A DNA stretch of 64,000 bases from contig NC_134029.1 of the NCBI RefSeq assembly GCF_964204645.1, forward strand, positions 12,426,850 to 12,490,849, written 5' to 3'. Source of the stretch: Tubulanus polymorphus. Taxonomy: Eukaryota; Animalia; Nemertea. Each line of letters starts with the position of its first letter. The stretch's first letter is position 1. The notes under the pieces were generated by a model. That model was not told the origin of the DNA. It ran no database searches and saw nothing but the letters and a program-made list of their open reading frames with translations. Made by a program: the position numbers and the translations under genes. Shown piece by piece: positions 25,106 through 51,659 of the stretch.

Positions 25106-25107
25106 AA

Positions 25108-28600: not shown

Positions 28601-29486
28601 TCGACAAAACCAAAAAGAAGAATTGTCGCGGGCGACAAAACCAAAATAATGAATTGTCGCTGGAGATAAAACCAAAGTAAGGAATTGTCGCGGGCGATAA
28701 AACCAAAATATTGAATTGTCGCGGGCGACAAAACCAAAATGGTGAATTGTCGCGGGCGACAAAACCAAAATGGTGAATTGTCGCGAGCGACAAAACCAAA
28801 ATAATGAATTGTCGCGGGCGATAAAACCGTAATAATGAATTGTCGCGGGCGATAAAACCAAAATAATGAATTGTCTCGGGCGACAAAACCAAAATAATGA
28901 ATTATTGCGGGCGATAAAACCAAAATATTGAATTGTCGAGGGCGACAAAACCAAAATGGTGAATTGTCGCGGGCGACAAAACCAAAATGGTGAATTGTCG
29001 CGAGCGACAAAACCAAAATAATGAATTGTCGCGGGCGATAAAACCGTAATAATGAATTGTCGCGGGCGATAAAACCAAAATAATGAATTGTCTCGGGCGA
29101 CAAAACCAAAATAATGAATTATTGCGGGCGATAAAACCAAAATATTGAATTGTCGCGGGCGACAAAACCACGTAGCGGGCGACAAAAACAAAATATAAAA
29201 CCAAAATAATGAATTGTCGCGGGCGGCAAAACTAAAAAGAAGGATTGTCGCGGGCGACAAAACCAAAATAATGAATTGTCGCTGGCGATAAAACCAAAGT
29301 AATGAATTGTCGTGGGCGATAAAACCAAAATATTGAATTTTTCGCGGGCGACAAAACCAAAATATCGAATTGTCGCGGGCGACAAAATCAAAATCATTGT
29401 TTTCTCGCGTTATTTTAGTTTTGTCGTTTTGTCGTAATGTCGCCCTCATTTGCATATTCGTGTTTTTTATCGTATCAGCCACCATA
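25608..29486. repeat. 31-bp minisatellite array C with higher-order duplications and the ...CAGCCACCATA terminus
   Basis: Tandem units to ~29395; internal 695-bp and 217-bp duplications. Confidence 0.95.
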
Positions 29487-30783
29487 CTTAAGCCTTAAGG
29501 TCGCGTAAAACTCGATAAACACTTCAAGCGACACAGCGAACGATCCCTTTCCCCCACAGCGAACGCTTACTCCGAATGTCAAGTGTGAGTCCAGCATACG
29601 GATAGGAGTGTGTTATATACTTGTATTTAGTAAATACCTTGTGCATTTGACAATGATCGGTATGTACTGTAGGAAATATAGAGTATTGATGGTATTGATA
29701 TAGAGGTTGAAGCCCGCGGCCGAATAAAGTAATATATTCTTTTATTTTGATACCTCGTCGACATAACAGCTTTTCTCCGTTATATCTCTTGTTTAGTTTA
29801 GGCCTACGACTCCCCGGTACACTTATGATTTATCTTAGTAAATACACGGTTAATTTGGTAAAGAAAAATAGGTATTGCTAAACTAACTGCTTGACGCCCG
29901 CAGCCAAATCACTGGTAGTTATAAATTAATTTGTACTCGATTTGATTCTCATGATGAGGAGAAACTCGCAGCTGATCCCCGGAACGACGATGTAGTAACA
30001 CACGTCTGTTGGAGTAGTATTCAGGGAACCGCTTGAATCGAGGAACCGGTAGATGGCGGGTCAATCGCTCATTCAATAGATGGCGTTCCTTTCATCAGTA
30101 GGAGCAATGGCTGCCAATCGAACTGTAAATATCGAAAAAATGCACTCAAAAAATGATGATAGGATGAGCTTAGCCTTAGGCCTTAATTTCAAGCTAGATT
30201 TTTATGCTTCCACCGTGCTCGAATTTAGGGGATCCAGAAGGGAGGTTTTACCTGGATCAAAGTTCCGTGACGAATGAGGTTGTGTAACAACGCGCAAAAT
30301 CATGCGGAAATCTTTGCTGCATGAATTGAATGTACTAATTACACTTACAGCGCCCTAGGCTACAAGCCATGGATGAATCAAATTGTCTTAATTTGGACAA
30401 AGTTCTATATTCGGCCTATCCCAGTTGGTTTTAGCAAGGTTCCACTGATTGATTTATTCTCTTGAACTTTGAAACATGCCATAATAGGAGCCCTAAATCA
30501 ATTTGGTCTTAATTTGATAGTACCGATACCAAAGTCGTCATTGAATCAATTTCTTTCAATCTGAATCAGAGCAGAGAATACTTAATGAACTATGCCTAAA
30601 TCAATTTTAACAATTTGTTCACGTGCCCAACGTTTTAAATTAATCTCAAATCATCAAAAATATGGTTTATAAGCATGGAAACAGGAAACATCTCAAGAAT
30701 TTCAAACCTTTTCTCTTCAACATGAGAAAATGAAGACTTTTTGACAATCCTTCAATGCCATGTGAAAAATCAATGGATATAAA

Positions 30784-33700
30784 ATGATGGTAGGCCTATA
30801 TTGAGACTGCACAGTTTCACGGGTGGTATTTAATTAAGACCAAATTTGAGGTATGTGTTGAAAAGATTAAGCAAAATATCCCCAAAAAATTGGGTGCTGA
30901 TCAGGCCAAATATGAAGGCACTTTGGGTCTTTGAGGGGGTCCCTGGACTCGGGGCCAAGAATAGTCCCCAGGGTTGTATTGTAAAGCCACCAGGAGTCCA
31001 TTTACCTGTTAGGGGGGTCCCTGGGCCCGGGGCCAAGACTCATCGGGCAAATGTGATGAGGGTTTGGTTAATCGTAAAGGGGTACACCCTGCAGGTTCTT
31101 GTTAAATTTAGCACTAATCGGACCACAGGTAAAGCCACCAGGAGTCCATTTATCTGTTAGGGGGGGTCCCTGGGCCCGGGGCCAAGACTCATCGGGCAAA
31201 TGTGATGAGGGTTTGGTTAATCGTAAAGGGGTACACCCTGCAGGTGCTTGTTAAATTTAGCACTAATCGGACCACAGGTAAAGCCACCAGGAGTCCATTT
31301 ACCTGTTAGGGGGGTCCCTGGTCCCGGGGCCAAGACTCATCGGGCAAATGTGATGAGGGTTTGGTTAATCGTTAAAAGGTACACCGTGCAGGTGCCTGTT
31401 GAATTTAGCACCAATCGGACCACAGGTAAAGCCACTAGGAGTCCATTTACTTGGTAGGGGCCAAGACTCATCGGGCAAATGTGATGAGGGTTTGGTTAAT
31501 CGTTAAAAGGTACACCCTGCAGGTGCTTGTTGAATTTTGTGCCGATACAAGGTAGTTAATCTGTAATTGATTGTTTCATTGTAGGTGCTTCCTCCAGGTC
31601 TTAGAAACCCTGGTAATGTCTGTTTCCTCAATTCTGTCGTGCAATGTCTTCGGGCCACCCGAGGCTTTTTACATCGCTTTTTTAAGAAAGCATGTTCGCA
31701 GCCCTGTAGGCCTACCTGCAATGCATGTAACATTCAGCAATCGTTACTTGGCAACACTGAGCCACTTATTGATAACATAAAAGGTATGTATAATTTTCAT
31801 TGCAGTTTTTAAATGACAGACTTGTATGATAGATGAAACAACAATTTTTGATTGAAATGGTTTTAACTTGCAGCGTTGTTATTTGACAATTGTTGTTTCA
31901 CTGTCGAGTTAGAATATCTACTTAATTCACAGTGGATAAGTACATGCCTATTGTCAGACAGACCATCAAATTTGTGTCTGAATGAAAGGTCAAGGCAACG
32001 TGGGCTCCAAAAGCACAAGATAAATCCATGGGCACAAGATTATCAGTAGGTGAAGGAACTACATTACAGAGCCGCAGCTTTCGATGTTCCTGAGATCGTA
32101 CATAGTCTCTATGGGCATAGAAAATCTCATAGTGTTCATACGATTATTCTTGATGAAAAGAAACGTGGGTTTTTTGCTAGCATTGAAGTGCATGTAGCAA
32201 TTTTGCGATCTTTATCAGAAAGCATTGTTATTGAATATGACTCCCTATGTACTTTTGTAATTATATTTTCCAGACTTCGTGGTCGATGCAGAAAAGCACC
32301 AACAGCAAGATGTGATGGAATTTTTTCATGGCGTGTGTTTGAAAATCAAAGAAAAGTAATTATTTTGTTCTCATCTTTTTAGCCAACTTGGTACCCACTT
32401 GGTACCATCCCCCCTGGTAGGGCTTGAAATCTGATGGCATTGATTGAGACTTGCCACTTCATGAAACCTTACCATACTAGACAGAGAATGCAGCTTAGAA
32501 GATGCAATTATAAGCCAATCATAAATCCTGATTAATTTAAGCCCAGGTTTTTCCATTGATAGTTTATCTGTGAAATTATTCTCGGTGATTATTCAATCAA
32601 TCTGATTGGTGCCGCAAGTTTTCAAACCTGCATCTAGTGTGGCAGAGTTTCGTGCCGCTGCTAAGTCTAGCAATGCCATCAAGTTCTTATCCCTGCCAGG
32701 GGGATAACTTAGGATTTACATCCCACTTCTTTCATCATCTGTAGACAGAATCTAGTTTTCAATACGCTTTGATTATGACCTTTCCAAGTCATAGGTTTGT
32801 GCATATATGTTCACCAGAGGGCATTGAATTTTGAAATTGTCAGATGAAATTGTCAGATTGTTGACCAGTTCAGATGGCGCGGTGTCCTTGGACCTCAGAC
32901 CGGCCTGGTCAGAATCAAGATGGCCGACTGGTGCTGGCACTGTATCGTGGTTCAGTTCATTTTTCTAATCAAGACAAAATCTACTCCTACCTTTAATTGC
33001 ATTCCTGTTTCGTTATCTGATATAAGCATTTCATAAGGCTGTGGTAAACCTCTTGGCGCATTATTATTATTATTTCAAACCACCTTCCAAGTGGGCATGG
33101 TATCCCTATGGACCCCTAGTCAACTTTTTACCCTAAGAGGTATGGGTATGATTTCCATATTTTACTTTTTCATACTGGTATATTTTGTGATCAATCTATT
33201 CTGTATTTGCTGTCACCTAGCGTACTATATTTTCAGTTTTCACTTTTGTTCTCTCTAGCTTCACTTGTGTATTTATTTGCAGAATGCCGCTTTGTTTTGA
33301 ATTTGTGCTGAAAACAACAGGTAGGTCGATGTGACTTTTCACAGAAAATTGCTGATATTTTCCTAATCAATTTTTGTAATGATGTAGCTATCCATTTGCA
33401 GACACTTGCCTGGAATGTGGAAAAGAGAGCATACGTCAGTCGGAACATTTGAATATGTCTTGTGCCATCGAGGTGAATATTAAGAATGTATTATATGCTA
33501 GTATTAGAAATTGCTCCACTGTTGTTGGATTGTATACAACCATGGAAGATGAACCGTGTCGACCCCTGATAGATTCAAACAGCTCATATCAGTGACTTGG
33601 AATTAATTTTGACCAGTTCCAAGATATACGGATATTCTGATTATGTGAAAAATTGGCCTTTAGTGGGTGTGGCAGGAGGTGGTATATCGCGGGTTTGGTT

Positions 33701-36700
33701 CACTGCAAGTTTTTTTAGTAAAATAACAATAATTACGCAGAAGCTCATCTGCAATTTGACTTATAATAGTGGTAGGGCTACAAGATCTGTTAATGCAAAT
33801 ATGCTTATGGTACCTAGAACACTCATTAGGTCTGGTGATCATGTCTTTAAATCTTATGGACCTCGTTTATGGAATACACTTCCTGTGGATATGAGAACAA
33901 TTGTTACATTGAGACATATAAAAACTTATTTAAGAATTGTCTGTTTAAAAGGGCCTTCCTCGACCAAGAGATAGCACAGTTAGCAAGTTTTTCAGTATAG
34001 TGCTTTACAAATTACTTGTGCTATGTCAATGACAAACCTATAATTAGATTCATCTTTGAATTCATTTTGTAGTCAGAAGAACGGAAAGCATTCCAGACCA
34101 TTCAGGAATGCGTAACTAATTTCTTCAGTCTAGAGGAGGTGACGGTTCGGTGTTCAGAGTAAGATATCAAAGATTAAGTACCAGTATACTCTCTTTCAGT
34201 CCACTTCTAATACAAATGATGTAACCTTGTTATTCTTATAGTATTAACAACTATAAGTTTGGTTGTGTGCACTGTATATGTATAACCTACCGGTAAATAT
34301 CATCAGATATAATACATGTCCCCACTTAATCCATCAACAGGTGTCCGTGTGAACAAGCTTTTCGCTTTCAAGAACTTGTGAATGCACCTGATTTCATTGT
34401 CATTGATTTGAAAAGGTTAGCCATGTTATTTGTATTTTTTGAGCTGTTTCACATCGTAAATTTGATAATATCTATAATGGAAATATAATGATAATATATA
34501 TAATATATGAACTTTCTAATTGAAATACTTATAATGGATTTCATATAGATATCGTTGGTTCGGCAATGCAGGGAAACTCATGCACCACGTAAACATTGGA
34601 AAGAATTTAGATATTCTTGTTGGAAATGATCAGGTAATCTTCTACTATTTCACTTGGAAGTTGTTTAAAACAATGTAAAACGCTTGCATGACATTGTGGC
34701 ATGCTCTAGGGGAAATTTTTTCCCAGTTACGTTTTAACTCCTGACACTATTAATCATTATAATCAGTATTACTCAATAGCGTATTTTATTATCATGATCA
34801 TTTGAAGTGCTTTGATCAAAGTAAATCTTGAGTGTCAAGAATCAGTCATCATGTTTTTTGTATGTGTGATTTCAGTATGTTTATGAGTTATATGCTGTCA
34901 TTACTCATCGAGGTGTCGAGGTAACCAGTGGGCACTTTGTTGCGTATCTGAAAGTTCTGAATGGTTGGGCTCTTGCCGATGATGATAATGTAAGTTTAGC
35001 AAATCAATAATGAAATGAAAGCTAATTTATGATCAAAGTATGATTTGGGTCGTTGAATTCTAATGCAGTTCATGTTAATACAAATGTATTCCAAAACCTG
35101 TCATCAATTAAATCTATTGATATATAATGAGATTAGGCTATACATTATTTTTTCATCTGTCAGGTTTCCAGTATGAGAGCTCCAATCTTTCAAGGAGGCG
35201 AGCCGTATGGTTGCTTTTACGAAAAGAAAATTCACTCTGTAAGTACAATTTGCTTATTCATATTGATACACGGATATATGTATCAATAACCACAATCAAT
35301 TGCAAAATTGTAACTCCTGGTGGCTTTACCTGTGGTCCGATTAGTGCTAAATTTAACAAGCACCTGCAGGGTGTACCCCTCAACGATTAACCAAACCCTC
35401 ATCACATTTGATTAGTTTTTAGTATATGGTCACCAGGGGACATTGAATATTGGAGTATTCTGATTGTTGAGCAGCATTTCAAACCACATCCCATGGTGTC
35501 CCTGGATAGTTTAATATTGACAAGTTCGATCCCTACGTTATCTTGACTTAAGCACGTACAGAAGATTCCTATCTGTTTAATCAATCACATCAGTTTAATA
35601 AAAAAAAAGACCTTGCCTACAAGGCTGTCAAATTTGTATTATCATGTATAGTATATATTTAGCCCACATTTGATTTGTGAAGTGTTAGAAATTTTCTTAT
35701 CATTATTACTATAAGATATATCATTTATTATAGAGGTTTTGATTCGCAATTATTGTGCAAAGCTTGGAGCACAGGTTGACATGACTACAGTTTTTTATGT
35801 ATTGCTCAGCCTTTTTTTAAATGTCTTTCAATTCATATATTGCAGGTTTATACATCAGAAATGCCTCAAACTGTAAGTAGAAATAATTTATTTCTTATTC
35901 CTGAATTGTACCTCATTGGGTTTTGAACCAACTTTTGACGTATGTGGTCCTGAGCTTAATTTCTATATATAAACGTCTGAATCAGACAGTGATTATGTAT
36001 ATTTGTGACAATTTGCTGAAATCTAATTTACCGGTAGTTAACTCAACCTATGTTCAACGGAGGAATGATAAATTGCTGATCTTAGTTAAGATTCAAATAG
36101 ATGATTTGGGGAATTAATACACTTATCATATCGAAATTTGTATGGGAAAATTTAGAGGTTTAACAAGTTTTGAACCTATGAGTTTTAGAAGTTTTGTAGA
36201 AAAAGATTTTTAATTAATCATTGTTTAAAGTTTGGCCCATCACCATAAGAAAAATTTGGTCGATCGGACTCAAGTTGGCAGTCCTATGACCTTTTTAGTG
36301 CCCAAAAATGTCAATTTTGGCACAAATTCTGAGTCCTGTAGCTTCTTACTGGTTTGCCATTTCTCATTGCAATTTGTGATGGGTATTCTTTGGACCCCTA
36401 GTTTGTGTGGCGAAAATGGACCGTGTTTAACATCTCCGGTTCGTTTTCGTTACAACATCTCATCCTTTCCTCCGATATCTCCAGGTGGAGCGATTTCATA
36501 TATATAAATATGTTTTGTATTGTGTAAATTTGTATCTGTGTACTACTGTCAATTTTTCGGGCGTCTCGTTACGGTCTATCGCGTTCGGGTTGGGGGTTTT
36601 GGTCGGTTTCTGTCGGGAAATAGCACGATCACATCTTTTTATTCGGCTTTTATCATAAATTCGCGCTATGACATTCTGGTTACTTACCGGCAGTCTATTC

Positions 36701-39700
36701 CTTTGTATTCGCTTTTCAATTTTGAACTGCCGTTTTGTGATGTCATAATCCCACTTTCATCATATTTCCGTAGTTTGATTTGTTCTCATCGGTTTCTCGC
36801 TCGCGAGTTGAGCATTGTCGCACTGCTAGGCGGCTCACTATTATTGCGCGCGGATATCAAACTCGGGTTTGATTTTCAAATTCCGCTTTTGACCTTTCAA
36901 ACTTATTCTTTTGGCATTTTTATCGCGTATATCGTGATATCCCTTACAAAAAATCACTCATGTGATTTTTTAAAAAACACGTGTGATTCACATGTGTAAA
37001 AATGGGACATTATCACACATGTGATTCTGTATGTGAATCACACGTGTGATTTTGTATGTGAATCACACGTGTGATTTTGTCCCATTTTTACACATGTGAA
37101 TCACACATGTGATTCACATGTGATTTTGTCCCATTTTTACACATGTGAATCACACGTGTGATACAGCCCTGAATGTAAATCACACATGTCATATAACACA
37201 GTTATGTGTGATTTATAACGCATGTGATCTGCAGTCATCCTCATTGTTCCAGCTCCACACGACTGTATTCAAGAAGAAGTATAAGTACACATTCATAATG
37301 GTCAAAATTTGACCTCTTCCTTCATTGGACATGATGTTTCATCCATACTTCACAATTTCCTAAAAACTCATTGCCTGAAAGGAGATCTGCATATTGGCAA
37401 AACGAAATGAAGTTTCAAAATTACCAACCAAATGTAATAACTCACTTGTGTAAGCTTACATGTTAATGGGAATTTTATTTTCAAATATTTACAGATTTAC
37501 TTCGTCAATTTATACTGTTTCAGCATTTGTCCAATCTTCTTTCTAATTTGGGCCGCGGTAACCCCCAATCTACAATTCAGAACATGATCTGGAATGAGAC
37601 AAAATTATAAAACATTTAAATACTACACACAATTCCAAACAATAAATCAATAAATCAATATCCCTAATATCAATCATCTGATGAAAAAAGCCAAAGTTAC
37701 ATTATTATGATAAGTGAAACCAGACGAAAAACGGCGCTATTGTAACACTAGCTTATAAATTTTTTCAATCAACACTTACCATAACAGGGCTCAAAACCTC
37801 TTTTTCAGTAATTTGTTCCGGCTGAAAGTATACGTTTCATTCTCCGTGTAGATAAATTACTACTCGAGGAAATGTACTGACTCCCTAGATTAATAACGGA
37901 AAATTCCATTTTAATTTGTAAATGATTCATTCCAATGTAGAAAGAATTGGCAAATACTGTTCAATACCGGCTGAGCATTCAGTTTAGGAATGATACAATA
38001 TAGCATTAGTATGCAAACGAGTGTCTTATTCCTGGACATATCGTGATTTAAAAATAGTTCATGGTGTAATCTAGGCCTACTTGTTAGGCATGGACATGTT
38101 GTACTTTGCATGCATCAATCATGTCCATGAAATAAAGTTTGGATGAATTTGATTTAATTGATTGATTGGTACACGCCACTGATTTTACCGATTACAGTAC
38201 ATTCAATTAACATCATCGACTATGAATATTTGACGAAACACAATAATACTTGCTTTTGAGCTTGGATTCAAACACCAGACTTTTCGAACTAAGAAATTAA
38301 CCATCAAAATTGATTAAAAACAGCAACGACTATCCTCGAAATAATTGCAAATGGCGCCGTGCGTGCCTGCATGCTCATTCCAAGTCCTTTGCTAGCCGTC
38401 GTCAACGGTTCGAATCCCGTAAATACCTGCTAATTTTTCGAAGTCGTTTTTGAATATTAATATTTTTTTAGAACTCAACAGCGAATGTAAAAACATATCA
38501 TAACCTTATTTTATTCATTTAGCGGAATGAAAATACAAACTCACTAGTCCGTGGACATTGGTTCTTGGTTTTTGCACAGTAGGGGTGTCAGTGTTAGATA
38601 AAATCTAACCATGTGTTGAAAATGTTGAAATAATGAGTACAGTTATGGAAATATTCTTATTCCAACATGGATTCTATGACTAAAATGCAGATGTTCAGAA
38701 TTTGGAACCAACATGGGAATGGTTCATATCCGAAATATTCACACTGTGTTGTAGATTGGAATAACTGATGTTAATCACATGTGTTATTCTAATGACACGC
38801 GTGATCCTAGCGGTTACACATGTGATCTGTGTTGTTGAGCCAATCACATGTGTGAATCACACATGTATTTCTCAATCACACATGTATTTCAGAATCACAC
38901 ATGTGATCATGTGTTATTCACACATGTGATATGCTCCACAACACAGATCACACATGTGATAGCTGGAATCACATGTGTTTTCTGTGTCTTTCACACCTTT
39001 CACACATGTAATGTGTGTTATTCACACATATAACATGTGTGAATTTTTTGTAAGGGATCACTAATGGCCAATGAGCGCCCCCGGATTTCTATAAAATGCG
39101 GGTCGTTCGAGCACAGTCATTCTGATTTTCGAATCACACGCACGTACTTATAGTATCAGCGAACAACTTACAGCAATTAAATTCTTAATCGAATATAACT
39201 ATTAAAATGTAAGCGATAAGAGACGCGCCCTCTCTATCCCGCCTTCGGGTTGGATAGGGTCATCTTGTCCAACCCGAAGGATGAGATATATTCACTTTTA
39301 GATCGTCCGGCCAAGTTAGATGTTGACCGAGTTTGATTTTGGCCAAGTTTGATTCCGGCCCAGTTTGATTTCAACCAAGTTTGATTTTTTCGGTCTCCTA
39401 GTCTAGCAAAATCTACCGACCGAGAGCGTCACTATGATGGACAGTCATGATCAATTTTGTTTAGTTTAGTCGAGCTGACTTTTGTTCATACGTAAAATCA
39501 TTTTCCGGGCGTATTGATCGTCACATCATTTTCAACTACGACTGTATTGATCCACTCTCGGTCGAGCGATTTTGCTCCGATTGTATATAAAATATATATG
39601 TTTCTACATTTGAGCGCGATTGAATAATGATTTGAGATCGTCGCTATAATTTTCAAATCATCTCTCACCGTACGCCCGAATAAGGTGACTCTAACGTAAT

Positions 39701-42700
39701 TTCGTGACTTCGTATAATTTGACGTTCCTGACGCGAGACCGTACGGAGATGCACCCGAGGTGTAAACTTTATGAACTGGAGAAATGATTAAATTCAGGAG
39801 TTCAACTCTTGACATGATTAATTTTATACAAGTCTTACATTTTCGTCTTTTCTGAACAAGGAGAGGAGTTCCACCGCTATTTTCTGTCTCAGTGCCAATT
39901 ATTATTATTCGTCTTAATGAGAGGACCAGTTCGATCGGGGACGTATCGGCAGTAGTTAGATGAAGACCATCAATCGAGGATTCGAACCCCCAATCTTTGT
40001 ATCGACTGACGGCCTTTATCCAGGGGAAGTCATGACAAAGTGTCATACGGAGCGAACGGTAGATGTTGGGAGAACTAGGTTCGATCGCGTGCGAAATCCT
40101 GGCCAGGTAGTCGCCTACGAGGATGCTGAGCCCTGATCATGGAATGAGAAGACTGAATATTTTTATTTGATTATAATTTCGACAAGAACTGATATCTTTT
40201 CCCTGAGGAGGAATTACTTCCCCCAATATTTTCGCATAACCCGATTATATTGTCTCAGGGCGAACCCTAGTAGCAAACGCCTATTGCATCTATTATATAC
40301 GTAAACATATAAAGACCCGCTACCCAGGAGAGATACGCTACATTTGCTATTCTACCAGTTTGGATGGATTACCGAATAGACTAGTACCGTTATAGGCCGA
40401 CTCTACTGTATATCACTTAGGGCGAGACCGCCACCTCTACTGTATATCACTTTGGGGTGAGAGGACGTTAACAGAATTATCCAACTCAAAACAGAACAAA
40501 CTATATTTTGAAGAAGAATTCACGATTGATTTTTATTAATTATCTTATGTTGCGATACATCATAGGACGATTCACACTGTAGAGCATCAAACATTCGATT
40601 TAACAACTTAAATATCGGTATAAACAGAAGATGCTACATATTCACATAGTTTCAAGCTGCATATTTACAATTTCATATTATAATATTCATTGGCCCTGTT
40701 ACTTATTTGATTGGTATTTTTTTTTCATTTGGTATAACAAACTCATCACACCTTCTGGAGACAAAACAGGGGCTTTGATTTTGAAATCAAAGATTCACAT
40801 ATAGTTGTGTGATTGGTGGTCAAATAAACAGAGTTTTCTTGTGGAAATTTTATGTTTTGGTAGTTTTCCCTGTATGAATAGTTGTTTTTAAACCCAACTT
40901 CGTACAATACCATTATAGTTTATCAATGTTAGCTATGCATTTTGTTATTTTAGATAAATACATCTCGGGGACCATCAGCTCTCAGCGACGATGTGTATGA
41001 GATCATGCTTTCTGTGCTAAGTGGAAAGAAGATGCTCTCATCATATCCAGTTACTTCCGGTGACAAAAAATATGATGCTGTGCGCAAAAATGCTGCAAAT
41101 AAGTTATCTTCAAAAGCTTACATATGTCAAAAAGTTAACAACAAAAATGAAATTATATTCCTAAAAACGAGAAAAATTATTCCAAAATCATCAGCCATTG
41201 CCTCAATTATTGATCAGTACCACACGAGCATGGCTGGATCAGGTTCATCCAAATTAGTAGGAGCAATCAGCAGCAGTTTCCATGGTATATCAAAGCAAAC
41301 TATCCAAGATCATCTTAATTCGAAGCCAACGCACACGATACGGAATCCATTATTTACGAACAAGCCACCTATTAAGAATATAACAGCATCTGCTCCGATG
41401 AGCCGGGTACAAATAGATTTAGTACTAATGGAAGAAGTTGAGAACGAAGGATCTACGTACAGATATGTGTGCAGTGTGATTGACGTATTTAGTAGGTTCC
41501 TTTGGTTACGCCCAATTCAGAACAAAACATCGAAAACGGTGGCCGAAGTGACAAAAAATATATTCTGTGAGTTCGGCAACCCGCAATACGTACAGACCGA
41601 TAATGGAACGGAATTCAAAGGAGAGTTTGATTCATTTTTGAAGACTGCAAAAATAAAGCATATATTTGGTTCGCCTAGGCATCCCCAATCACAAGGAAAA
41701 GTAATGATTATATTTTGATTGAAAAAATTGGGAAGTAGTTTTTGTATTACAAATTTAACAATGTTTTTACCGTTCTTTACAGTCCGAAAGATCACATGGG
41801 AGCTGGAAGAAGATGCTTCGGTACCTACTCGGGAGAGATGATGAGACAAATTGGGTTGCGCACATTCCTGAGCTCCAGAGAATTATGAATCAACGATCAC
41901 ATAAAGCATTTTGTATGTAATTAGGGTATTCTGCCTACCTTTGTTAGAAACCTTATTGTTATCCTAGCTATCATAATAATAGCCCTACTCCTCTGTTATT
42001 TCTAAACTGCAAATTTGCAGTATAGAAGATACTACACCTTAATATCTACCGCGCTGGAACCGGGTGTATTGTACCTTTCAAATTTTAGGGGTCCAAAGAT
42101 AGATATACCCCTTGGCAATAAGCTTCGTGCGGTATTGTCATCACCTGTCTCCATCTGGGCAGGGTGATGTGAAATAGGCATTATGGAACTCGTTCTTGCT
42201 CTACAATCTACACTTTTTAATGATTTTTGTATGTGTATGAAACTTGTCAGGAATATGTACCCTATTACAATTTTGTGATCTGAACATGACTCACTCACTG
42301 GCCGAAGGGTATTCGTTACGTATGTCTGGTTTAACCAGGCTTTTCCTATCAATTCATCTGCTATGAAAATACTAATTTTCTTTTTCAGCCGATAAGATGA
42401 CTCCTTTCGAAGTATTTTTTGCCAGGAAGCACAATCAAGGTGAAGGCCTTCAAAATGGTCAGATGACGAAAGCAGACTCCGTAGATGAAGAAAATACTTC
42501 AGATGTGGCTTCTTCAAATGTGAATACAGTAAAACCCCTTGCATGAATACCTCCCTATAGTGAACACCTCCTATAATGAACACCCTATGTGCGGTCCCAA
42601 AACCTAAAATACATGCATCAGTACTTATGCGTTAACACAGTCATAGACGCAGTATTACATCAAGATCATGACCTCCCTATAGTGGACAGTGAGCACTTTT

Positions 42701-45700
42701 TCTAGTAGAGATGGTCCGTTATGGTATGTGCCAACCTGGCTATTTAGTCACTTCGATCACACATTCTGCTCAGGTGTTGTACCAAACTATCTCTCTAAAG
42801 TACTTGGATAATTGATGCGATAAGTTATCCTACTTTAATGAAAGTGTATTGCAGTCATGATTTAGATCAATTTAGTGTTTGGCTGTGTAGTTGTGGATTC
42901 ATAAGAACATACCTGGTGTCGTCCCATGTCACATCATTACCTAACCCTCCCCATAGTGAACACTTTGCTTGGTCCCGATGGCGTTCACTATACAGAGGCT
43001 TTACTCTACTTCAGATGTGACTAGTAATAATACATGTTGATGATGTGTTATATAACACATGAAACTTTTGTACTTTAAAATTTCAAGCTCACTGCCTGGG
43101 GGAATGAATCCGCTTCAAAGCGAAAAGCAGCTGAAGCACTTTCAACTGTATATAATGCTGCAATGGTCAAGGGACATAAGAATAGATACCCTTGTTCCCA
43201 GTATGAACCTGGACACCGTGTTTTGGTGAATGTAAGTACTTGTTAAATCTGCATTCTTTCATCCAGTGTGGAAATAAAGCTTGAAATGCTTTTATCTTCC
43301 ATTTATACACATTGTGTATTCAATCAACATTACTGGCTTAGGGGTATTGCCATCTGTCAGGAAGAGAATGCTCCTGCTCTAAAGTCTACTTCTGTTTTGA
43401 ACCAATTTTCTGATTACATGGTAGGTGAATAATGGATGGAAGATGTGCTGTATTGTTTTTACTCGTGTAGATTATCCAAGATAGCCGCCACAGCTATATT
43501 TATAGAGCCTTCATAGTGTAGCTCTAGTTACATTTTATGTACAATTATTAAAGAATTTACCAATTTTCAACCCCCTCCCTATATTTTACAAACTTCCAAA
43601 AAATCTGCTTCCCCTAGTACGTGCAATGAGTTCTAAATCAGTTTATCATTATCAGGCAACAGCAATGAAAAAGACGAAACTTTATAGTAAGACTGGGCCA
43701 AAGTGCCATAAAGGAGTCATCCTAAAGGTCGGTAAAATGGGAAGAAAGTACCAAGTCCTGGTCAAAAATTCTCTGTTGTGGGTGGATATTAGTATGCTGA
43801 CATCCCTGACAAGGATGAAGCAAAAGAAGCTTTTAGGAACTAAATGTAAGTACTAACGGAATTAACTGTTTCCAAAAGTGCACTGATTCATTAGAATTAT
43901 TCACACTTGCATAAAAGAGGTTTTACTGTAATTACTGATGAATGATGTTGTTTTATTCTATGACAGCTCCTCTAAATAGATATTGTATGTGTGTTTCCAA
44001 GTGCAAGAAGACAAGGGCACCGAAGTGTGAAAACTATATGCACAGAGACTGCTGCAAGAGTGCAGGAAAAAAGTGTGCTCTTCACAATATCCTGTAAGTA
44101 ATCATCCGATTGATTGATTTGTAGATAGATGAAATTTATCTGAAATTTATCTCAAGTGAGTGGTGAGAATTATATATATATATATGGTGTATCTGCACAT
44201 ATTCTGTCTTTTATAACACGTTCTCAATATACTCGTAATGGCTCAAGTCCATTATAGCATTAAATAGTTCCAGCAGAGACTTATCACATTGGAACGGTAT
44301 TTGGAATTAATCCGCCAATATTGGACTGATTGAATCTTACGACATTACGCCATAGGGACGTGCGAACATACCGACATACCGACAAACCGACGAACCGACA
44401 AACCGACGAACCGACAAACCGACGAACCGACATACCGACGAACCGACATACCGACGAACCGACAAAAAGACAAATCCGTGCGTGGATTACCCTTATATAA
44501 AGTGGCTGGGATCGAGGGGCTGCGTGGTTGCGTGGATTACCCTGGTTATATAATGTGGCTGGGATCGAGGGGCTGCGTGGTTGCATGGATTACCCTTATA
44601 TAATGTGGCTGGGATCGAGGGGCTGGGTGGTGCGTGGATTACCCTTATATAATGTGGCTGGGATCGAGGGGTTGTGTGGTGCATGGATTACCCTTTTATA
44701 AAGTGGTTGGGATCGAGGGGCTGTGTGGTTGAGTGGATTACCCTTATATAATGTGGCTAGGATCGACGGACAGGGTTTTTCCGTGGATTACACGTGGCTG
44801 GATCGAGGGCATACGAGTTTGTCGGTTTAACGGTATGTCGGTTTGTCGGTTCGTCGGTTTGTCGGTATGTCGGTTCGTCGGTTTGTCGGTATGTCGGTTT
44901 GTCGGTTTGTCGGTTTGTTTTGAAAAATACGCAGCCGAATTACTCCTTTTCTAAAAATGTATCCTTGAGCGGGAACTATTCCACGCTATACTGGACTTGA
45001 ACCCTGGTAAGATTTTATGATGGCTTATATGATGGATTTAATGGACAACTATGAAAGTGTATTTAATTGAGAATGGTTTTCCATTTTAGGGGTGATGAAA
45101 CCATTTCTACTGAAACCAGGCACATTATGGATCGCGTTGTTGGTGAGGTAGAGCATTTTTTGTGAATTCTGTCAAATCAATCCTATCGGATCTTTTCATT
45201 TGAAATCTTCATTTAGAGTACCAGATCTATTTAAGGACTTGAATTGTTGTGTTAATGAATATACATAATAGGAGGCTAAACTTTGCCATAATTTTTCAGT
45301 TTAAGATAGTTGCTAATTCGTAAGTATTTTTTGGCTCACACCAAATCATGTGTATACAAGTGACGCATGCACATGGTTTCTGTTTTGATTTTCACACCAT
45401 TTAATTTAATGTGAGTGGTTTAAATTAATTCGAAAATAACAGTTGGTATTATTTGTCAAAGGGTATATATATATATTTACATCTTGGTGTATGTGCACAT
45501 ATTCTGCCTTTTATAACACGCTATCAATGTGAAACACATGTATTTACTTTAATCTCTGCAGGTGCTTTAGCGTATGTGTCTGTGTGTCTGGAAGACACAT
45601 GGACCAGTACACTATTGATATCTTAACAAATCATATATCATATTCTTTGATTATCCCGTGATCAGTTTACGGTCTAGGTATTGTGTCATTGCTTTTTAGC

Positions 45701-47806
45701 CAACTAGTCCCAGCGGGCTATGAAGGTTCAGTTTGTAGGTCCGTAGACAGAATCCAGTTATTTAAGGAAGTTTTACAGATGCTGCGGTAGACAGTTGATA
45801 GTTAAGCACTTCAAACCAGCTCCCAAGTGGGCAAAGTGGGCCTGCACCCCTAGTCTTAGTGTATTTTTCTAATTCTGCTACACTATGCTTTTACGCTATG
45901 TATGTAGTGAAATAATCATGTAATATCCATAAAACCCCTGTGTGATCACATTAATTGTATCGTTTTTCTTTAACATTCCAGTTGAATGCAGACACTCATC
46001 ATATTGATCAATGTGCGCAACAAATATCTGATAAGATTAAAGCTAGTAACAGGTAAGCCATACTATAAACTATAACTGTAATGGTTTGCAATTTCCACAC
46101 GTTAATTCATACCAATATCTCATTCCTGAATATTTCAGCTCTGATCAGGGTGACAGCAACGCTCACAAGCAGGGCGTGGAAGGAATGATGACTCTTATTA
46201 AGACAGTGAAGTGAGTAGTCATGATGAATGTACAGTCCACCCCGATATCCCGCCCTCCCCGCCTACCGCCAGGTTTTCTCCATGTACATCTCAAAACACC
46301 TCCGATATACCGCCATACTCTCTATAGTGTCATACTCTCTATACCGCCAAAATCGTTCTGCACTGATGTGGGCGCAGTATACCAGGGGTTGACATTAGTG
46401 GTAAAGCAAAATTATTTTGATATTAGACACTGGTATCAAACTGCCTCAAGCTTTATTGTATTTAATCCTAATGGTCTAAGAGCAGTCAATGGTAAAGTAT
46501 GAATCATTTTTACTTACAGAGATGTTTCGCAGCTAGAAGATAAGCAATTAACTTATTTGGTTATGCAGAATGAGTGCTATTTGAGGAATATTTTCCAGGG
46601 AAAGGTAGTGTACTTAAAATAATCATATATACCAGTCATTAGCGATTAATTTTGTGTTCAGGTGTCGTACAAAACTATCTCTCTAAGGTATTATATTAGT
46701 CTTCCATGACTGATATGTATCACAGTATTCATTACTTGTAGTCAACAGTAATGCTCATTTTATATATATATACTTTTAGACTAAATGTCGACGCCATGAA
46801 GACTACAAGAATGGCGGAAAGAGCAGGCGTAAGTTGAAAATTAAGTACAATAACCAGTAACTAATACCCTGGTAACCAAGTGTTTATGTGCCTTGCTTAC
46901 TGTATTTCAGGTAACTTGACCTTGCAAGTACCAATCACTTTGTACAGTGATGCGCAATGTGATGTAATAATAAAGGGATTAATGGACATGTTTTGCCCAA
47001 CTGATACGAAGGTTTGTATATACCGGTAAAGCTTTAAGTAATTTACCCTAGTATATCAAATATTGCGTATGTAACCCACTTAAGTGAGCCATTTCTGTGT
47101 AGACGAAATATTTTGGGTTGTTTTAAATATGCTTCAATGCTTGTCTCGCTATGTTCACCAGGGGTTGTTTAATAGTAGATGTTCCATCCTCCCCCGGCAG
47201 GGTTCGTACCCGATGGCATTGGCACAAAACCCTGCCACACTAGACTGAGTGCGCAGCTACCAGGCAGCTTAGATGATGACATTATTAGCAAATCAGATAT
47301 CCCGGGTTTTCCCATTCTTAGTTGTTCCGTGAAATTTACCTCCGCGATTCTACAACAAGCAATCTGATTGGTGCCGTAAGTTTTCGCGTGGCAAAGCTGC
47401 ACACCCGGTCAAGTGTGGCAGGGGTTTGTGCCGTGTGGCTGAGTGAAGCGATGCCATCGGGTTCGAATCCCTGCTGTGGGAGGATGTAGATGTACCTGCA
47501 TATATTGTTATATTTTGTATGTACTGCATTTTAATGTCATTGATTCCTTAATTTGTTCACAGGGGGCATTGAATATTGAAATTGTCTGATTGCTAAGCAT
47601 TTCAGCGAATGTGCATGTTGTCTCTTAACACTTTGTTAGCCCGACCTCACCAAACTTTTGAATTATATTTTCAGTACATGGATTATGTGTTTCGAGTTTT
47701 GTTGCCAGAAACACTGATAAAGATCTATATGGAGGTCCATCAAACATCACATGAACTAGCAGAAGAACGCTTGGCCGATGCTCTTTTGGGAAGTGAAAGT
47801 GATTAA
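30784..47806 (+). CDS. Spliced USP(C19)-integrase fusion transposase, ~974 aa, ~26 exons
   Basis: GT-AG exons with consistent phase and no internal stop: 30784-30789 (tentative), 31585-31783, 32274-32355, 33283-33320, 33402-33472, 34073-34158, 34341-34415, 34549-34633, 34876-34989, 35164-35238, 35846-35872, 40954-41700, 41783-41912, 42389-42519, 43088-43231, 43656-43845, 43967-44093, 45090-45147, 45300-45319, 45562-45571 (tentative), 45982-46052, 46139-46210, 46520-46604, 46780-46828, 46911-47011, 47675-47806 (TAA). Confidence 0.72.
30935..31545. repeat. ~148-bp tandem repeat (~4 copies) in the first intron
   Basis: AAGACTCATCGGGCAAATGTGATGAG recurs at ~31035, 31184, 31332 and 31463. Confidence 0.9.
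31585..35238 (+). CDS. Ubiquitin-specific protease (peptidase C19) domain, 9 exons
   Basis: Cys box GLRNPGNVCFLNSVVQCL (Cys 31621); QQQDVMEFF; finger pairs CLEC and CSEC; PDFIVIDLKRY; His box YELYAVITHRGVEVTSGHFVAY (His 34933); WALADDD; YGCFY. Confidence 0.9.
32378..33120 (-). mobile_element. Decayed Helentron/HINE-like copy containing a palindromic MITE (~32406-32706), intronic
   Basis: The end TTCAAACCACCTTCCAAGTGGGCATGG...GGACCCCTAGT is the reverse complement of the start of the 1247 element. The inner MITE resembles 47185-47486. Confidence 0.5.
33750..33960 (+). pseudogene. L2/CR1-type LINE ORF2 3' fragment in an intron
   Basis: RATRS...LMVPRT...GDHVFKSYGPRLWNTLPVDMR resembles the L2 C-terminal GDRAFSxxxPxLWNxLP motif. 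Confidence 0.65.
35313..35410 (-). repeat. Inverted partial copy of the intron-1 148-bp repeat
   Basis: Reverse complement of 31197-31294 with 2 mismatches in 98 nt. Confidence 0.92.
36230..36404 (-). mobile_element. Internally deleted Helentron/HINE-like fragment
   Basis: Reverse complement of ~2185-2340 joined to the element start GGACCCCTAGTTT. Confidence 0.6.
36941..39056. mobile_element. CACTA/EnSpm (CMC)-like non-autonomous element
   Basis: TIRs CCCTTACAAAAAAT ... ATTTTTTGTAAGGG, 2-bp TSD AT, dense subterminal CACATGTG repeats at both ends. Confidence 0.75.
40954..43845 (+). CDS. Retroviral-like DDE integrase (KRBA2/SCAND3/GingerRoot type) and its C-terminal region, 5 exons
   Basis: RVQID (D 41416), VIDVFSRFLWLRP, QTDNGTEF (D 41599), HPQSQGK|SERSH (E 41786, across an intron; D34E), NWVAHIP, TPFEVFFAR, YEPGHRVLV, WVDISMLTSLT. 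Confidence 0.9.
42527..43006. mobile_element. Tc1/pogo (Tigger-like) MITE in an integrase intron
   Basis: TA|CAGTAAAACCCCT ... AGAGGCTTTACTC|TA, with internal inverted TATAGTGAACA motifs. Confidence 0.55.
44240..45003. mobile_element. Palindromic MITE with inverted 8-bp microsatellite arms and a ~52-bp central minisatellite
   Basis: TIRs GGCTCAAGTCCATTATAGC / GCTATACTGGACTTGAACC. (ACCGACAA/ACCGACGA)n on the left, its reverse complement on the right. GGATTACCCTTATATAATGTGGCTGGGATCGAGGGG repeats in the centre. Confidence 0.7.
45693..45853 (-). mobile_element. Minimal Helentron/HINE-like remnant retaining both ends
   Basis: AGTCCCAGCGGGCTAT...AATCCAGTTATTT...TTCAAACCAGCTCCCAAGTGGGC...CCCCTAGT matches the reverse complement of both ends of 1247-2659. 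Confidence 0.55.
47185..47486. mobile_element. TIR MITE with a 9-bp TSD in the last intron
   Basis: CATCCTCCC...GGGAGGATG with long imperfect arms; flanks TAGATGTTC / TAGATGTAC. Confidence 0.7.
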
Positions 47807-49957
47807 GACACTGAAAGCTGATCAATTGCCATATCTATAGTCGTTATTACGAGGTTCCACTGTTACATGATTGAAGTGTATGTTCCATCCATGCTTTTCG
47901 TAATTGACTTTGTGTTTTACATAGAGCAAAATATTTTTCATATACGTGGCAATGTACGTTGTATATTATAATTCATTGATACTGAAACAAAGTAATTTTG
48001 TATTGGTATATTAAGTATGTTGAACTGTTCTGACAATCACATATCACTGATGTTTTTCATATTCTTTTTTATTGTTTGGTGAAAACGAAAACATTCAAAT
48101 AATGTACGTAGAGTAGGTATTGGGTTAGGAAAATTTTATCAACAAAACAAACGTCCGTTGTGTTTTGTCTTTTATAAGCTTCGAGAGAACTAAGTATCAG
48201 TGGATAGAAAGAGGTACATGTATATAATATTCCTGTGTATATATTTTTTAATGTCAACGCAGAGGGATGTAAAATTAGAATCTTGTAAAATTGACATGTT
48301 CATTTTAAAAGAGATTATACATATGGTTATTATATTAATTTGGTCCTTTAGATGTAATATGCATTTGTATGTTTACTGATATATTTTATATGATAATAGA
48401 GCATAATTCAGACACATACATAGATGTACTGGCCATATCTTTTATCCTATTTTTATCAAATGTCAAAATGCTCAATAACATATTAAATCATTTCATACTT
48501 ATAACTACATATCTAGCTCTGTTTTCGAATAGATCTGAAGTTAACTAGTCTACATATCATATAACTCAATAAAAAGTCTAATTCACTTAGGCTTAGATGC
48601 ATGAAATCAAAATATTTGATATGCGTAGTATGAAAACTTGGGCCTAGTCAAATGTTTACACTAAATTTGGCTAAATGAAATAGATTAAAATACTTACCTG
48701 TAAATATCAGCGAATAGAAAGAGTAAGATATATAAAATTCATGTGTATATGTATCGAGAGATTTAAAATCTGAATAACTTTCTGAGTCACTGCGACTATA
48801 TATCTACCCTTGGGCTAGCTGGTGTCAGATGGCCTAATATTTAATTAAATACAAACTATTCGTGCAATCGATCGCTATTACTCGTCGATTACTGCACGCT
48901 ATTACTACCTTGTTTGAGTGTATCGTCAAACCGCCAGATTGTATAACATTGATAATGGATAAGTTTGTTTAATGATAATAGTGATAAATATCAATTGAGC
49001 AAGATGGTAGATACACAGGTGCTCACAGTAATTCACAGTTTTAATTCGACTGATTTTCCTGAAAATTGAGACAAAACAACGTGTTTGCCGATAAATAATC
49101 AAAGTAAAATAAAGTCTGCCTTTCCGTCTGCCATCTAAACTTCGCATCAATGAAAAACTGATATTATCAGATTGACACATGCATTTACAATAAAGAATAT
49201 ATGTGAAATTAAGTGTTGCTAAATATTTGTAATATGCTCACACTATACATGCTACGTTTCACAAGTACGATCGTCTTTCCAGTATGCATAGCAATTTAGT
49301 TATTTTTTGAATTACACTACTTATATTTTCTAGACGAATCATTTGTAGTGCATTTATGAATGACATAAATAAAGGTATTTTGTATTAATTAAGTTTGGTT
49401 TCAATTGTTTTTATGCCATTCTTTGTAACAAGGCTACGTACGTTGCTGACGAGCAAAGAAGATTGCATACAGATCGTTGCAATTCCTAGATACGATTCCT
49501 GTCAATTAAGTTCTCTCTATGTTTGTTGTAAAAAATACGTTCTGGATCTGGAACTTGGCAATAAGCAAATGAAACATGGTGTATAGACTGCCAAAAGAAC
49601 TATCGTTTCAAGAGCATCGCCACTAGGAATAATCATCTAGAAATTCGAGGAAAAGCTGTGCGATTTGTTAGGGATAAGTGAATAACTTAAATTTCACAAT
49701 TTTCAAAGATTGCCCTAGCTACGCTTATAGGGGTAGGAGATAGAAAATATCTATGCACGTTGTATGTATATTCGAAAGAATACCCACAATGAGCTAGTTT
49801 TTTTGTAATTTATACATGAAATATCAAATTAACATATAACTGAATAGTGCATGGAGATTTCATACACTAGTTTGTTAGTTATTCGAATCAAATGTTTCGT
49901 TGAAAGCACTGGCTTGAAATTATGTTTTTGTTGTTATAATTTTGAATATGAATAAAC

Positions 49958-51553
49958 GGTTGTAGGTAAAAATCCCCTGGGTAAAAATCCCCTAGGTAAA
50001 AATCCCCAATTATTCAAAGTAGGTAAAAGTCCCCCACCTTTTGAATGGAGTCCAAATTAGATACAATTTTAAGGTCAATTTATTCGTATTAATATATTCT
50101 ATTTATTATTTACCTTATAATTGCGTTACATAGAAATATCATGTATAGAAGTTATCGCATTTCAATGAAAAATACAAAATTAGAAGTTAATTAATTCACA
50201 AAATCGCATCACAATAAAAATTACAAATTGGTTGTTCATTAATACTGTATCGCACAAAATATAAGTTAAAAAGAAAACAATCGCACAGTTCAAACATATT
50301 ATGATTTTAATTTTCAAAAAGCACTCTAAATTAAAAGTCTATTTATAACGCACAGCTTAAATAATATATCACAAGTAAAAAATGGCTCATCAAATAGGTA
50401 AAAGATATTACATTTTGAAGTTTAAAAAGTATTACAAATTAGAAGTTAATTAATGTACAAAATCGCATCACATTGTAAATCACATCGCACAGTACTGCAT
50501 CGCGCAAAATATAAGTTAAAAAGAGGTCATCGCACAGTTCAGTTTTATTTTCAAAAAGTACTCCAAGTTAAAAGTTACTTTAGTTAACGTTTATCAATTC
50601 TAATTTCCAAGCGGAATGTTATGACCCACACCACGCAGGAAATCGGCCATATTCAAATGTCCATCATTGTATTGTCGACACAGTATTTTTAATCGTTCGT
50701 GTAACGGACGATGGATGTTGCTAACCCGTCGTTGTGGAACTCCACCGATGGCGTTTTCCATTATCTTGGTGCTTGTGACACTCTGTTCCATTTGAATGGT
50801 ACGGATGGCGCGCCATATAGAAGGGTGTTTGTGCCCAATCAAATTGCGGAATCTGTTGTTCCATCCTTCTGAAACATTATTAGTTTTGGGGTCAGAGTTT
50901 AAAGTTGCTCGATTTACGTTCCATCTCTCGGGTGCGAATCTCGGAGCAATTCTCCGTATTATGTGTCGATTCTCTTCTCCGATTCTTCTTTCCCTATATG
51001 TTCCATTAACATATGTCGCATCGAAGTAGTTAATAAGAGGATCACAACCATCTGGGGCAACATCTCGTAGATGTTGCATTCCCGCCACAACATCCGCAGT
51101 GGGAAGAAATGCCAAACCATCAAGCCCACAGAATAACTTGAAATCGTCCTCATTCTGATACCTGAATACATAAGAGTAAATGAGTCAACAACAATTTGTA
51201 CAAAATCATTCAATTATTTTAAAAATTAAAAAAAGGTCATTTTCTTACCGATTTGCCATCCCGAGCTCTTGTATCTTGCGCCAGGTTGATTGTCTTAGGT
51301 GATAAAAACAACCCTGAATCTGCAGTGCATCGCCGAAGACAGCTCTTAACGCGTGATGAACATCTCAAAGTCCACTATAACTGTATCGGGATCAATACCA
51401 TCGACATTTTCACTGATGGCATTGAACAAATCCTCGTATGTACCTTCTGACTTCCGCTGTAAGAATGTGTACACTAAAGGAACTGTTATATTGTCAACCA
51501 AAGGAGCATGGATGACATACACCTGAGAAAAAAGTGGTGGTGCCATCGCAAAG
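49958..51553 (-). mobile_element. Truncated Mutator (MULE) transposon, one TIR plus the 3' part of the transposase
   Basis: TIR GGTTGTAGGTAAAAATCCCC with internal repeats at 49958; transposase remnants upstream on the minus strand. Confidence 0.8.
50600..51553 (-). pseudogene. MULE transposase pseudogene fragment (two exons, 5' truncated, frameshifted)
   Basis: FAMAPPLFSQVYVIH...VPLVYTFL...KSEGTY...IVDFE; FYHLRQSTWRKIQELG; AFLP...YFDATYV...WNV...TNNVSEGWNNRF...HPSIW. Confidence 0.88.
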
Positions 51554-51659
51554 TTCACAAAGGATATTGGTGAGGAATTAAAAACTTGAAAGCAGCAAGC
51601 GGAAAACAGTTCGATTTAAATTTTTCGTAATTCAAAGTAAGCATAGACAAAGAGCTAAC

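Follow-up and report, generated by a model that had tools for sequence, protein, structure and literature searches.

How does a USP-type deubiquitinase come to share a gene with an integrase-type transposase, and what does such a gene make? The question is raised by a locus of the nemertean Tubulanus polymorphus, which we analysed in a window of 64,000 nucleotides (assembly GCF_964204645.1, contig NC_134029.1, positions 12,426,850 to 12,490,849 of the forward strand); all coordinates below count from the first letter of this window. A preliminary description, made from the letters alone, had proposed that a spliced gene at 30784-47806 fuses an intact USP to a DDE integrase. The reading at which we arrive, and which we consider rather probable, is that of a 26-kb transposon with one USP-integrase gene, in which a 747-nucleotide catalytic exon works as an on/off splice switch. 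Why transposases carry ubiquitin or SUMO proteases at all is a question raised in the accessible part of Bao et al. 2010 (PMC2836005).

Do both enzymes belong to one mobile element? Self-comparison paired 30002-30056 with 56199-56253 as a short inverted match, and comparison with empty copies of the target repeat gave the following boundaries:

30001-30006, unstranded: left target-site duplication (TSD) CACGTC, from comparison with empty target-repeat copies
30007-30056, plus strand: left terminal inverted repeat (TIR), starting TGTTG, with two GGAACC sub-repeats, from self-comparison
30007-56248, unstranded: the whole insertion, 26,242 bp, from empty-site comparison
56199-56248, minus strand: right TIR, ending CGACA (TGTCG on the reverse strand), from self-comparison
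56249-56254, unstranded: right TSD CACGTC, from empty-site comparison

The sequence left of 30007 and that right of 56248 together make up a single repeat unit, of which the window has five further copies without an interruption (near 4883, 7535, 14065, 16740 and 60259). CACGTC is single in four of the five empty copies, and one copy has a one-base variant. The left flank is about 96% identical to the empty copies in all four compared, and the right flank 98.5-99.2% in three of the four compared and 84.9% in the fourth. Because the flanks are near-identical to the empty copies the insertion is young, and because the exons of both enzymes are inside ends fixed by empty sites, USP and integrase belong to one young insertion. 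The TIRs match at 38 of 50 nucleotides (binomial p about 8e-13), and the end pattern occurs at exactly two sites in the 64 kb and in none of 100 shuffles. The insertion measures ~20 kb after removal of six recognisable nested repeats. The flanking TGT..ACA inverted repeats for which the preliminary description had suggested a search are thus present, together with a 6-bp duplication and empty sites that it had not mentioned. An 8-bp TSD was also considered; it needs the right end to drop its terminal CA, and the symmetric TGT..ACA was preferred. Rfam gave 10 weak matches, all below the gathering score.

Within these ends an exon model was built by hand from splice sites, each scored against a matrix from the remaining sites (X4 denotes a public run considered further below):

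30784-30789, plus strand: putative exon 1 with the start codon; no junction, donor score 5.7
31585-31783, plus strand: exon 2, USP Cys box, catalytic Cys at 31621 (model, Pfam UCH)
32274-32355, plus strand: exon 3, QQD box (model; X4 cover ends at its donor)
33283-33320, plus strand: exon 4, USP (model, splice scores)
33402-33472, plus strand: exon 5, first CxxC (model)
34073-34158, plus strand: exon 6, second CxxC, extending into exon 7 (model)
34341-34415, plus strand: exon 7, LKR box (model; weak acceptor score)
34549-34633, plus strand: exon 8, USP (model; weak acceptor score)
34876-34989, plus strand: exon 9, His box, His at 34933 and Asp at 34978 (Pfam UCH, alignment)
35164-35238, plus strand: exon 10, YxxFY (model)
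35846-35872, plus strand: exon 11, 27-nucleotide linker (model; donor joined to 41783 in X4)
40954-41700, plus strand: exon 12, 747 nucleotides, phase 0-0, integrase N-terminal domains with D441 and D502 (Pfam rve, structure model; absent from the spliced form seen)
41783-41912, plus strand: exon 13, catalytic Glu at 41786 and remaining core (model, X4 joints)
42389-42519, plus strand: exon 14 (X4 joints; alternative in-frame donor 42528 in the annotated protein XP_074640950.1, here P0167)
43088-43231, plus strand: exon 15, long helix and start of an SH3/Tudor-like integrase C-terminal domain (X4 joints, structure model)
43656-43845, plus strand: exon 16, SH3/Tudor-like domain (X4 joint, structure model)
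43967-44093, plus strand: exon 17, Cys/His-rich motif, common to relatives P0002, P0021 and P0057
45090-45147, plus strand: exon 18 (model; RefSeq models take donor 45142)
45982-46052, 46139-46210 and 46520-46604, plus strand: exons 19-21 (X4 joints, identity to XP_074651077.1)
46780-46828, 46911-47011 and 47675-47806, plus strand: exons 22-24, tail with a PWWP3A/B C-terminal-like end, stop at 47806

The 24-exon model of 30784-47806 has 965 codons without an internal stop and a predicted protein of 964 aa. All 23 introns are GT-AG, and splice scores are mostly good; the acceptors of exons 7 and 8 are poor and are the sole in-phase options close by. Exons 17-18 have two open routes in different frames, acceptor 43967 with donor 45147 and acceptor 43980 with donor 45142, and homology supports the former. 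We left out two optional in-frame exons, 43361-43420 and 43471-43515, since X4 joins 43231 to 43656 and skips both. The rebuilt model recovers much of what had been described, namely nine USP exons that follow each other in the right order and reading frame, a linker exon ending in phase 0, an integrase exon starting in phase 0 at 40954 and an open frame throughout. The earlier count of 26 exons and 2919 nucleotides from 31585 was not reproduced; 24 exons give 2889 nucleotides and 26 give 2994.

Does the 5' part encode a deubiquitinase? The predicted USP catalytic domain is split over nine short exons, and Pfam UCH matches the Cys-box exon 2 (E 2.9e-7) and the His-box exon 9 (E 1.8e-7), both above the cut-off. 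The catalytic residues are C15 (nucleotide 31621), H234 (34933) and D249 (34978), and the Cys box has the oxyanion Asn and catalytic Cys of the C19 peptidases. In a search of PDB sequences the Cys-box exon aligned to USP21, USP2 and USP36, and the His-box exon to the catalytic His and Asp of USP14.

The integrase core follows in exon 12, where Pfam rve matches 40954-41700 with an E of 1e-17 (rva_4 reaches only 0.053). The integrase residues are D441 (nucleotide 41416), D502 (41599) and E537 (41786), with 34 residues between the last two. Exon 12 is open over its 249 codons with both catalytic Asp present, its structure model is confident (predicted local distance difference test, pLDDT, 89), and the model resembles PFV (foamy-virus) integrase over ~236 columns (E 2.4e-11); as modelled, the exon holds the N-terminal domains and the two catalytic Asp. 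Both the Cys/His/Asp set and the D-D-E triad that had been called intact could therefore be located, and the UCH and rve matches expected for the spliced protein were obtained on individual exons.

Exon 12 is symmetric (phase 0-0), and therefore the frames of both possible isoforms are open. Without it there is an open frame of 715 codons, which retains the USP, the Glu helix, the SH3/Tudor-like domain, the Cys/His motif and the tail; the SH3/Tudor-like domain corresponds to residues 94-163 of the P0167 structure model (best Z 8.3, PFV integrase Z 6.3), and its fold is a common one. A DDE enzyme without its two catalytic Asp cannot act as a transposase, and the skip form, of a predicted 715 aa, cannot be one. 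An in-frame stop stands immediately 5' of the exon 12 acceptor, and the first Met of the exon falls inside the first conserved helix, with none before it, so that a full transposase requires an upstream coding exon. Exon 11 offers one in phase with exon 12.

Which of these forms is seen? The integrase stretch is present in four public runs, none of the four recorded as RNA, and three runs were compared with the window; statements on joints refer here to 15 listed of 111 in total. Seven of the 15 are GT..AG joints, all from X4. Six match introns of the model (41912-42389, 42519-43088, 43231-43656, 46210-46520, 46828-46911 and 47011-47675), and the seventh leads from 35872 to 41783, bypassing exon 12, with the 27-nucleotide linker on its short side; its contig runs on through exons 13 and 14. 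Run X2, from the same sample as X4, has none of the seven joints, which disfavours a processed retrocopy as the source of the spliced contigs. Run X5, RNA by guess, gave just five partial pieces and carries no weight.

The X4 depth figure is 53 in exon 3, 0 in the following intron and again 53 in exon 10; we take the figure as a contig label, not an expression level. A model of one spliced contig over four USP bins expects 17, 4.0, 21 and 16, where 20, 3.84, 20.8 and 22.8 are seen, and we infer that a single spliced contig accounts for the X4 cover of the USP exons, closely in three of the four bins. Record 12, the contig that holds the skip joint, starts exactly 30 nucleotides 5' of 41783. 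This offset may point to a branch at donor 35872, and the same 30-nucleotide offset at donor 42519 fits the second donor in P0167. If so, 41783 is probably not the only sequence that can follow exon 11, and the other would be exon 12 or the intron.

The junction from 35872 to 40954, central to the preliminary description, is thus not among the joints covered, and the joint from 35872 leads to 41783 instead. Separate mRNAs for USP and integrase, the outcome named there as fatal to a fusion, are not what we found, as a spliced contig spans the linker exon and exon 13. Membership of the USP and integrase exons in one mobile element and one transcription unit is supported; a protein with both enzymes intact is so far a prediction, the form seen lacking the catalytic exon.

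These results bear directly on the possibility of chance neighbours, that is, a host USP gene beside a separate transposase gene, or a segmental duplication or mis-assembly. A 5,081-nucleotide intron with nested repeats separates the two parts, and RefSeq annotates 3' pieces only, as separate short genes. However, the spliced contig links the USP linker exon to transposase exons, and both parts are within one TIR pair and one target duplication at the empty-site breakpoints. Contig and breakpoints together largely refute this explanation, which we regard as very improbable.

The skip joint could also be understood if the gene had two promoters. The cutting transposase would then be made without the USP, from an internal promoter or another first exon, and the USP would be fused solely to the non-catalytic 3' part. 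One stretch of intron 11 comes into question:

39065-39208, plus strand: candidate internal promoter, CCAAT/TATA/Inr (initiator)-like, with a donor at 39208; motifs only, and may be part of a nested repeat

Its donor scores 10.0 (top 1%), and the CpG observed/expected ratio, ~0.45 in the USP introns, rises to 1.25-1.7 in several of the bins between 36500 and 40000. X4 has an unspliced contig at 39436-40150, and the sole listed joint from 35872 bypasses exon 12. Yet a splice from 39208 to 40954 has its first in-frame ATG at exon codon 18, within the first predicted helix, with two out-of-frame ATGs preceding it, and this stretch, which is repeated to a greater degree than the element, may be part of a nested repeat. 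We judge two promoters unlikely, though worth keeping in view.

Lower still is the probability that we give to a domesticated or passenger gene, in which exon 12 is unused and the locus is a USP-chromatin-reader gene whose movement was past or helped by another copy. The skip form is the sole form seen, the inverted ends are 76% alike, and 23 introns with a CpG-depleted gene body resemble a host gene, but the 249 codons of exon 12 are free of stops, both Asp are in place and the integrase fold is modelled with confidence, all of which speaks against disuse, as do young flanks, a perfect 6-bp duplication and a second copy at 98%.

The splice switch itself, which we continue to prefer, has to be weighed against several points. 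Neither 35872-40954 nor 41700-41783, the two junctions of exon 12, is among the joints covered; X4 has no RNA record, and the support for the joints comes from this single run. No USP exon-exon joint is listed, USP splicing being deduced from cover, and what looks like a branch at 35872 may simply reflect a retained intron. The donor at 39208 and its promoter-like motifs could feed exon 12 without the USP, the inverted ends are only 76% alike, and RefSeq models, taking the 43980/45142 route, put exons 17-18 in a different frame. The second copy is seen solely as a 399-aa model of the 3' half, with no view of ends, USP or exon 12, and may stem from segmental duplication. Finally, the USP part showed no similarity to 163 homologous proteins (best E 0.17) and no match to 85 loci, which are short and mostly prokaryotic insertion-sequence (IS)-like, with upstream exons out of view. 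With no USP relative among these proteins or loci, the fusion is without evidence from conservation. A search for longer proteins with the Cys-box exon gave three candidates, none of which scored, and is weak evidence.

What kind of transposon acquired the USP? A HMMER search with exon 12 returned 13,681 proteins at E <= 0.001, of which the best 150 were examined; none of these 150 is above 56% identity. Among the matches listed, the 56 relatives of at least 400 aa carry an OTU in 34 cases, an Ulp1 in one and a UCH in none, the OTU or Ulp1 being C-terminal. In a midpoint-rooted FastTree phylogeny of 62 cores (each from a protein of at least 400 aa and with no fewer than 135 core residues aligned, without named reference elements), the window core clusters with OTU-carrying proteins that lack the HHCC (H2C2) pattern, with a support of 0.88, and is separate from the HHCC-bearing cores of KRBA2-like and Gypsy type. 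The window protein is without the HHCC pattern, which occurs in the separate KRBA2-like branch. As 26 of 89 relatives end at the same HPQSQGK position as exon 12, the intron at this position is old.

The HHCC-less rve and OTU lineage (P0001, P0021, P0025, P0057, L001-L003 and others) is like the window protein in core grouping, N-terminal motif, SH3-like domain and HPQSQGK intron position, and in P0002, P0021 and P0057 also in the Cys/His motif. It differs in that its members have a C-terminal OTU or Ulp1 and no UCH, whereas the element has an N-terminal USP and no OTU pattern. That a close relative of OTU carriers has a different deubiquitinase at the opposite protein end suggests that the activity rather than the domain is kept.

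Some of the relatives deserve a description of their own. L001:165-3311, L002:3306-5699 and L003:1732-3948 are long single-frame relatives with an integrase followed by an OTU-like region, and several frames of this type open after a pyrimidine-rich stretch, suggesting an upstream exon. P0073 and P0082 have a weak F-box-like match 3' of the OTU. L006:621-3697 is a relative of the HHCC type and more distant; its 605-codon frame stands between 57-bp inverted repeats that are 98% alike, and it is apparently a compact complete Ginger2-like element.

Is the element itself a Ginger2? The accessible part of Bao et al. 2010 (PMC2836005) gives Ginger2/Tdd a 4-bp TSD, 5 bp in TDD-4/5, and is contradicted by that of Cerbin 2019 (PMC6839031), where the Ginger2 TSD is 6 bp. 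The element is like Ginger2/Tdd in its integrase-type D35E core (rve E 1e-17, spacing 34 residues), in its TGTNR ends, TGTTG and TGTCG, with a TIR in the range of about 45-300 bp, here imperfect at 38 of 50, and in combining a short TIR with the absence of a GPY/F or YPYY string. It is unlike Ginger2/Tdd in its TSD of 6 rather than 4 bp, its lack of an H2C2 finger before the core, its 26 kb against 2.7-6.7 kb, its 23 introns, its N-terminal USP and PWWP3A/B-like tail, and the skipping of the catalytic exon in the form seen. By eye the core is like six Repbase Ginger2 rows in the accessible part of the PMC10045372 supplement (Ginger2-1/2/3_CGi, Ginger2-1/2_CySi and Ginger2-2_TeGr), which are not in the tree. 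The signature common to them and the window core, also by eye, is R.QID, DVFSR..L.P, DNG.EF.G and HPQSQGK.ERSH. The suffixes CGi, CySi and TeGr presumably denote bivalves. The element works like Ginger2 but is not Ginger2 as defined by Bao 2010; we tested for a 4-bp TSD and an H2C2 finger, found neither, and for this reason have not filed it there.

Nor does it fit Ginger1, Polinton or GingerRoot. Ginger1, in the accessible part of Bao et al. 2010 (PMC2836005), likewise combines an integrase-type transposase with a ubiquitin/SUMO-type cysteine protease, has TGT ends and is spliced, but has a C-terminal OTU/Ulp1, YPYY, H2C2 and GPY/F motifs, a 4-bp CCGG/CCGT TSD and 0-4 introns; none of these three motifs was found in the window exon translations. 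Polinton/Maverick elements share the 6-bp TSD and an integrase without HHCC, whereas the present element lacks AG..CT ends and long TIRs and has TGT..ACA ends of 50 nucleotides. In 47807-56248 there are scattered splice candidates but no in-phase chain that would make a second gene, and no long frame or Pfam match for Polinton polymerase, ATPase or capsid genes, although the scan could miss intron-rich genes. GingerRoot/IS3EU elements share a 6-bp TSD and have TA..TA or TG..CA ends, and some GingerRoot have the TG..CA type and carry gene fragments (accessible part of PMC6839031), but the window core differs by eye from the published rows and matches rve (1e-17) rather than rva_4 (0.053). For giant transposons and for SCAND3/KRBA2 we relied on the accessible parts of PMC6431247 and PMC3575427.

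The USP-transposase architecture had been described as unfamiliar, which holds in part. A C19 peptidase on a DDE transposase had already been cited in the accessible part of Bao et al. 2010 (PMC2836005), for Trichomonas vaginalis XP_001314237.1, where it accompanies transposase_11, a different transposase family. On an integrase-type transposase we found no USP among the 163 homologues or in the literature, and the papers searched likewise describe no Ginger-like element of 26 kb with 23 introns; Repbase Reports, bioRxiv supplements and the majority of subscription papers lay outside the search.

The last exon of the gene retrieves three annotated T. polymorphus proteins. XP_074651077.1 (P0165), on a 24.87-Mb contig, is identical at 169 of 169 residues over exons 19-24, and XP_074640950.1 (P0167), on a separate 32.06-Mb contig, has 6 differences in the 387 residues that correspond to exons 14-24, a second copy of the 3' half at ~98% identity. 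XP_074658693.1 has only the last 130 residues in common (71%) and may represent the host gene from which the tail came. This tail is absent from the preliminary description. The sole match of the tail is a weak one to the PWWP3A/B C-terminal domain (PWP3A-B_C), below the Pfam cut-off; in the ESM Atlas its best score was 0.79, which gave no lead. P0167 had no match among PDB sequences, and its structure model is of low confidence in the tail.

How might such a gene have been assembled, and how would it work? The origin may be in an HHCC-less, OTU-carrying Ginger2-like lineage that lost its OTU, captured an intron-rich host USP gene at the 5' end and captured the PWWP3A/B-like tail at the 3' end; a USP36/42-like gene is a tentative candidate for the USP donor. 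Exon 12 would be either included, giving the 964-aa USP-transposase, or skipped, giving the non-cutting form of 715 aa. The full form would bind the GGAACC-containing ends, excise the element and, in the way of retroviral-type integrases, make staggered cuts 6 bp apart for its insertion. In the Drosophila P element, according to the accessible part of PMC7776569, alternative splicing of one unit gives an active transposase and a non-cutting isoform; by this analogy, inclusion of exon 12 may be rare and probably germline-restricted. The P element, however, retains an intron and truncates the protein, whereas the gene described here skips an in-frame cassette exon with two catalytic residues, keeping both protein ends and an enzyme domain. 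The skip form might be a chromatin deubiquitinase that either holds transposition down or allows the element to stay expressible within repeat-rich DNA, an action on chromatin being suggested by the USP, SH3/Tudor-like domain, Cys-rich motif and tail that it keeps. The USP would have here the role that OTU has in relatives, and histone-ubiquitin removal or self-stabilisation would plausibly be useful among satellites and young retroelements. These two functions, like the countering of host silencing, had been put forward in the preliminary description and are hypothetical. The full proposal, in which an active element swapped its lineage's OTU for a captured host USP and a cassette exon toggles between a germline USP-transposase and a somatic chromatin deubiquitinase that protects or restrains the element, is more tentative, and in our estimate falls a little short of probable.

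If it is true, independent swaps of OTU, Ulp1 and USP would make deubiquitination a selected part of such transposition. Cassette-exon skipping of a catalytic core may be a further self-limiting route for transposons. A length of 26 kb and a gene of 24 exons are, as this case shows, within the reach of a cut-and-paste element. As annotation breaks the gene into short unnamed pieces, such elements are probably being overlooked. The element also lends itself as a test system, for its ends are exact, empty sites are at hand, two isoforms are predicted and each enzyme offers a control by a single-residue change.

Other repeats are nested within the insertion, two of them as elements with ends of their own:

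36940-39056, unstranded: nested 2.1-kb inverted-repeat element in intron 11, from self-comparison
49961-52340, minus strand: nested inverted-repeat element with a 194-codon frame at 50600-51184; ends approximate

The first, which we take to be CACTA-like from its end motif, has CCCTTACAAAAAA inverted ends with AT on either side, and sub-terminal repeats. On its minus strand 37501-37588 and 37780-37821 are candidate exons, which match Myb/SANT weakly (E 0.079). A search for the ends and TSD of a nested element in the region 36420-40470 gave nothing convincing. The second, presumably MULE-like, has ends 93% alike over 72 nucleotides, with further end copies near 51657 and 52579, and no Pfam match for its frame. 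Smaller repeats within the insertion are a 148-bp tandem at 30981-31460, with an inverted partial copy at 35313-35410 in intron 10, a 50-bp tandem between inverted 8-bp arrays at 44340-44919, and an 87-bp perfect-spacing palindrome at 52760-52933. Near the right end, 54640-54901 (minus strand) may hold a small spliced transcript, with acceptors 54901 (score 8.2) and 54683 (14.5) and a donor at 54764, for which no in-phase chain was established.

The element is surrounded by satellite arrays and young retroelements. Long arrays at 953-13176, 25609-29394 and 58545-59647 consist of a 31-bp satellite and a 155-bp repeat, interspersed with the target repeat unit. On the plus strand, 62606-63727 holds a 373-codon frame, with no Pfam match, like the 3' end of the integrase of a long terminal repeat (LTR) retrotransposon. 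On the minus strand, 19000-25320 is a full-length BEL/Pao LTR retrotransposon with a 1837-codon frame for Pao peptidase, reverse transcriptase and integrase, which is very young, its direct repeats being 99.5% identical over 213 nucleotides.

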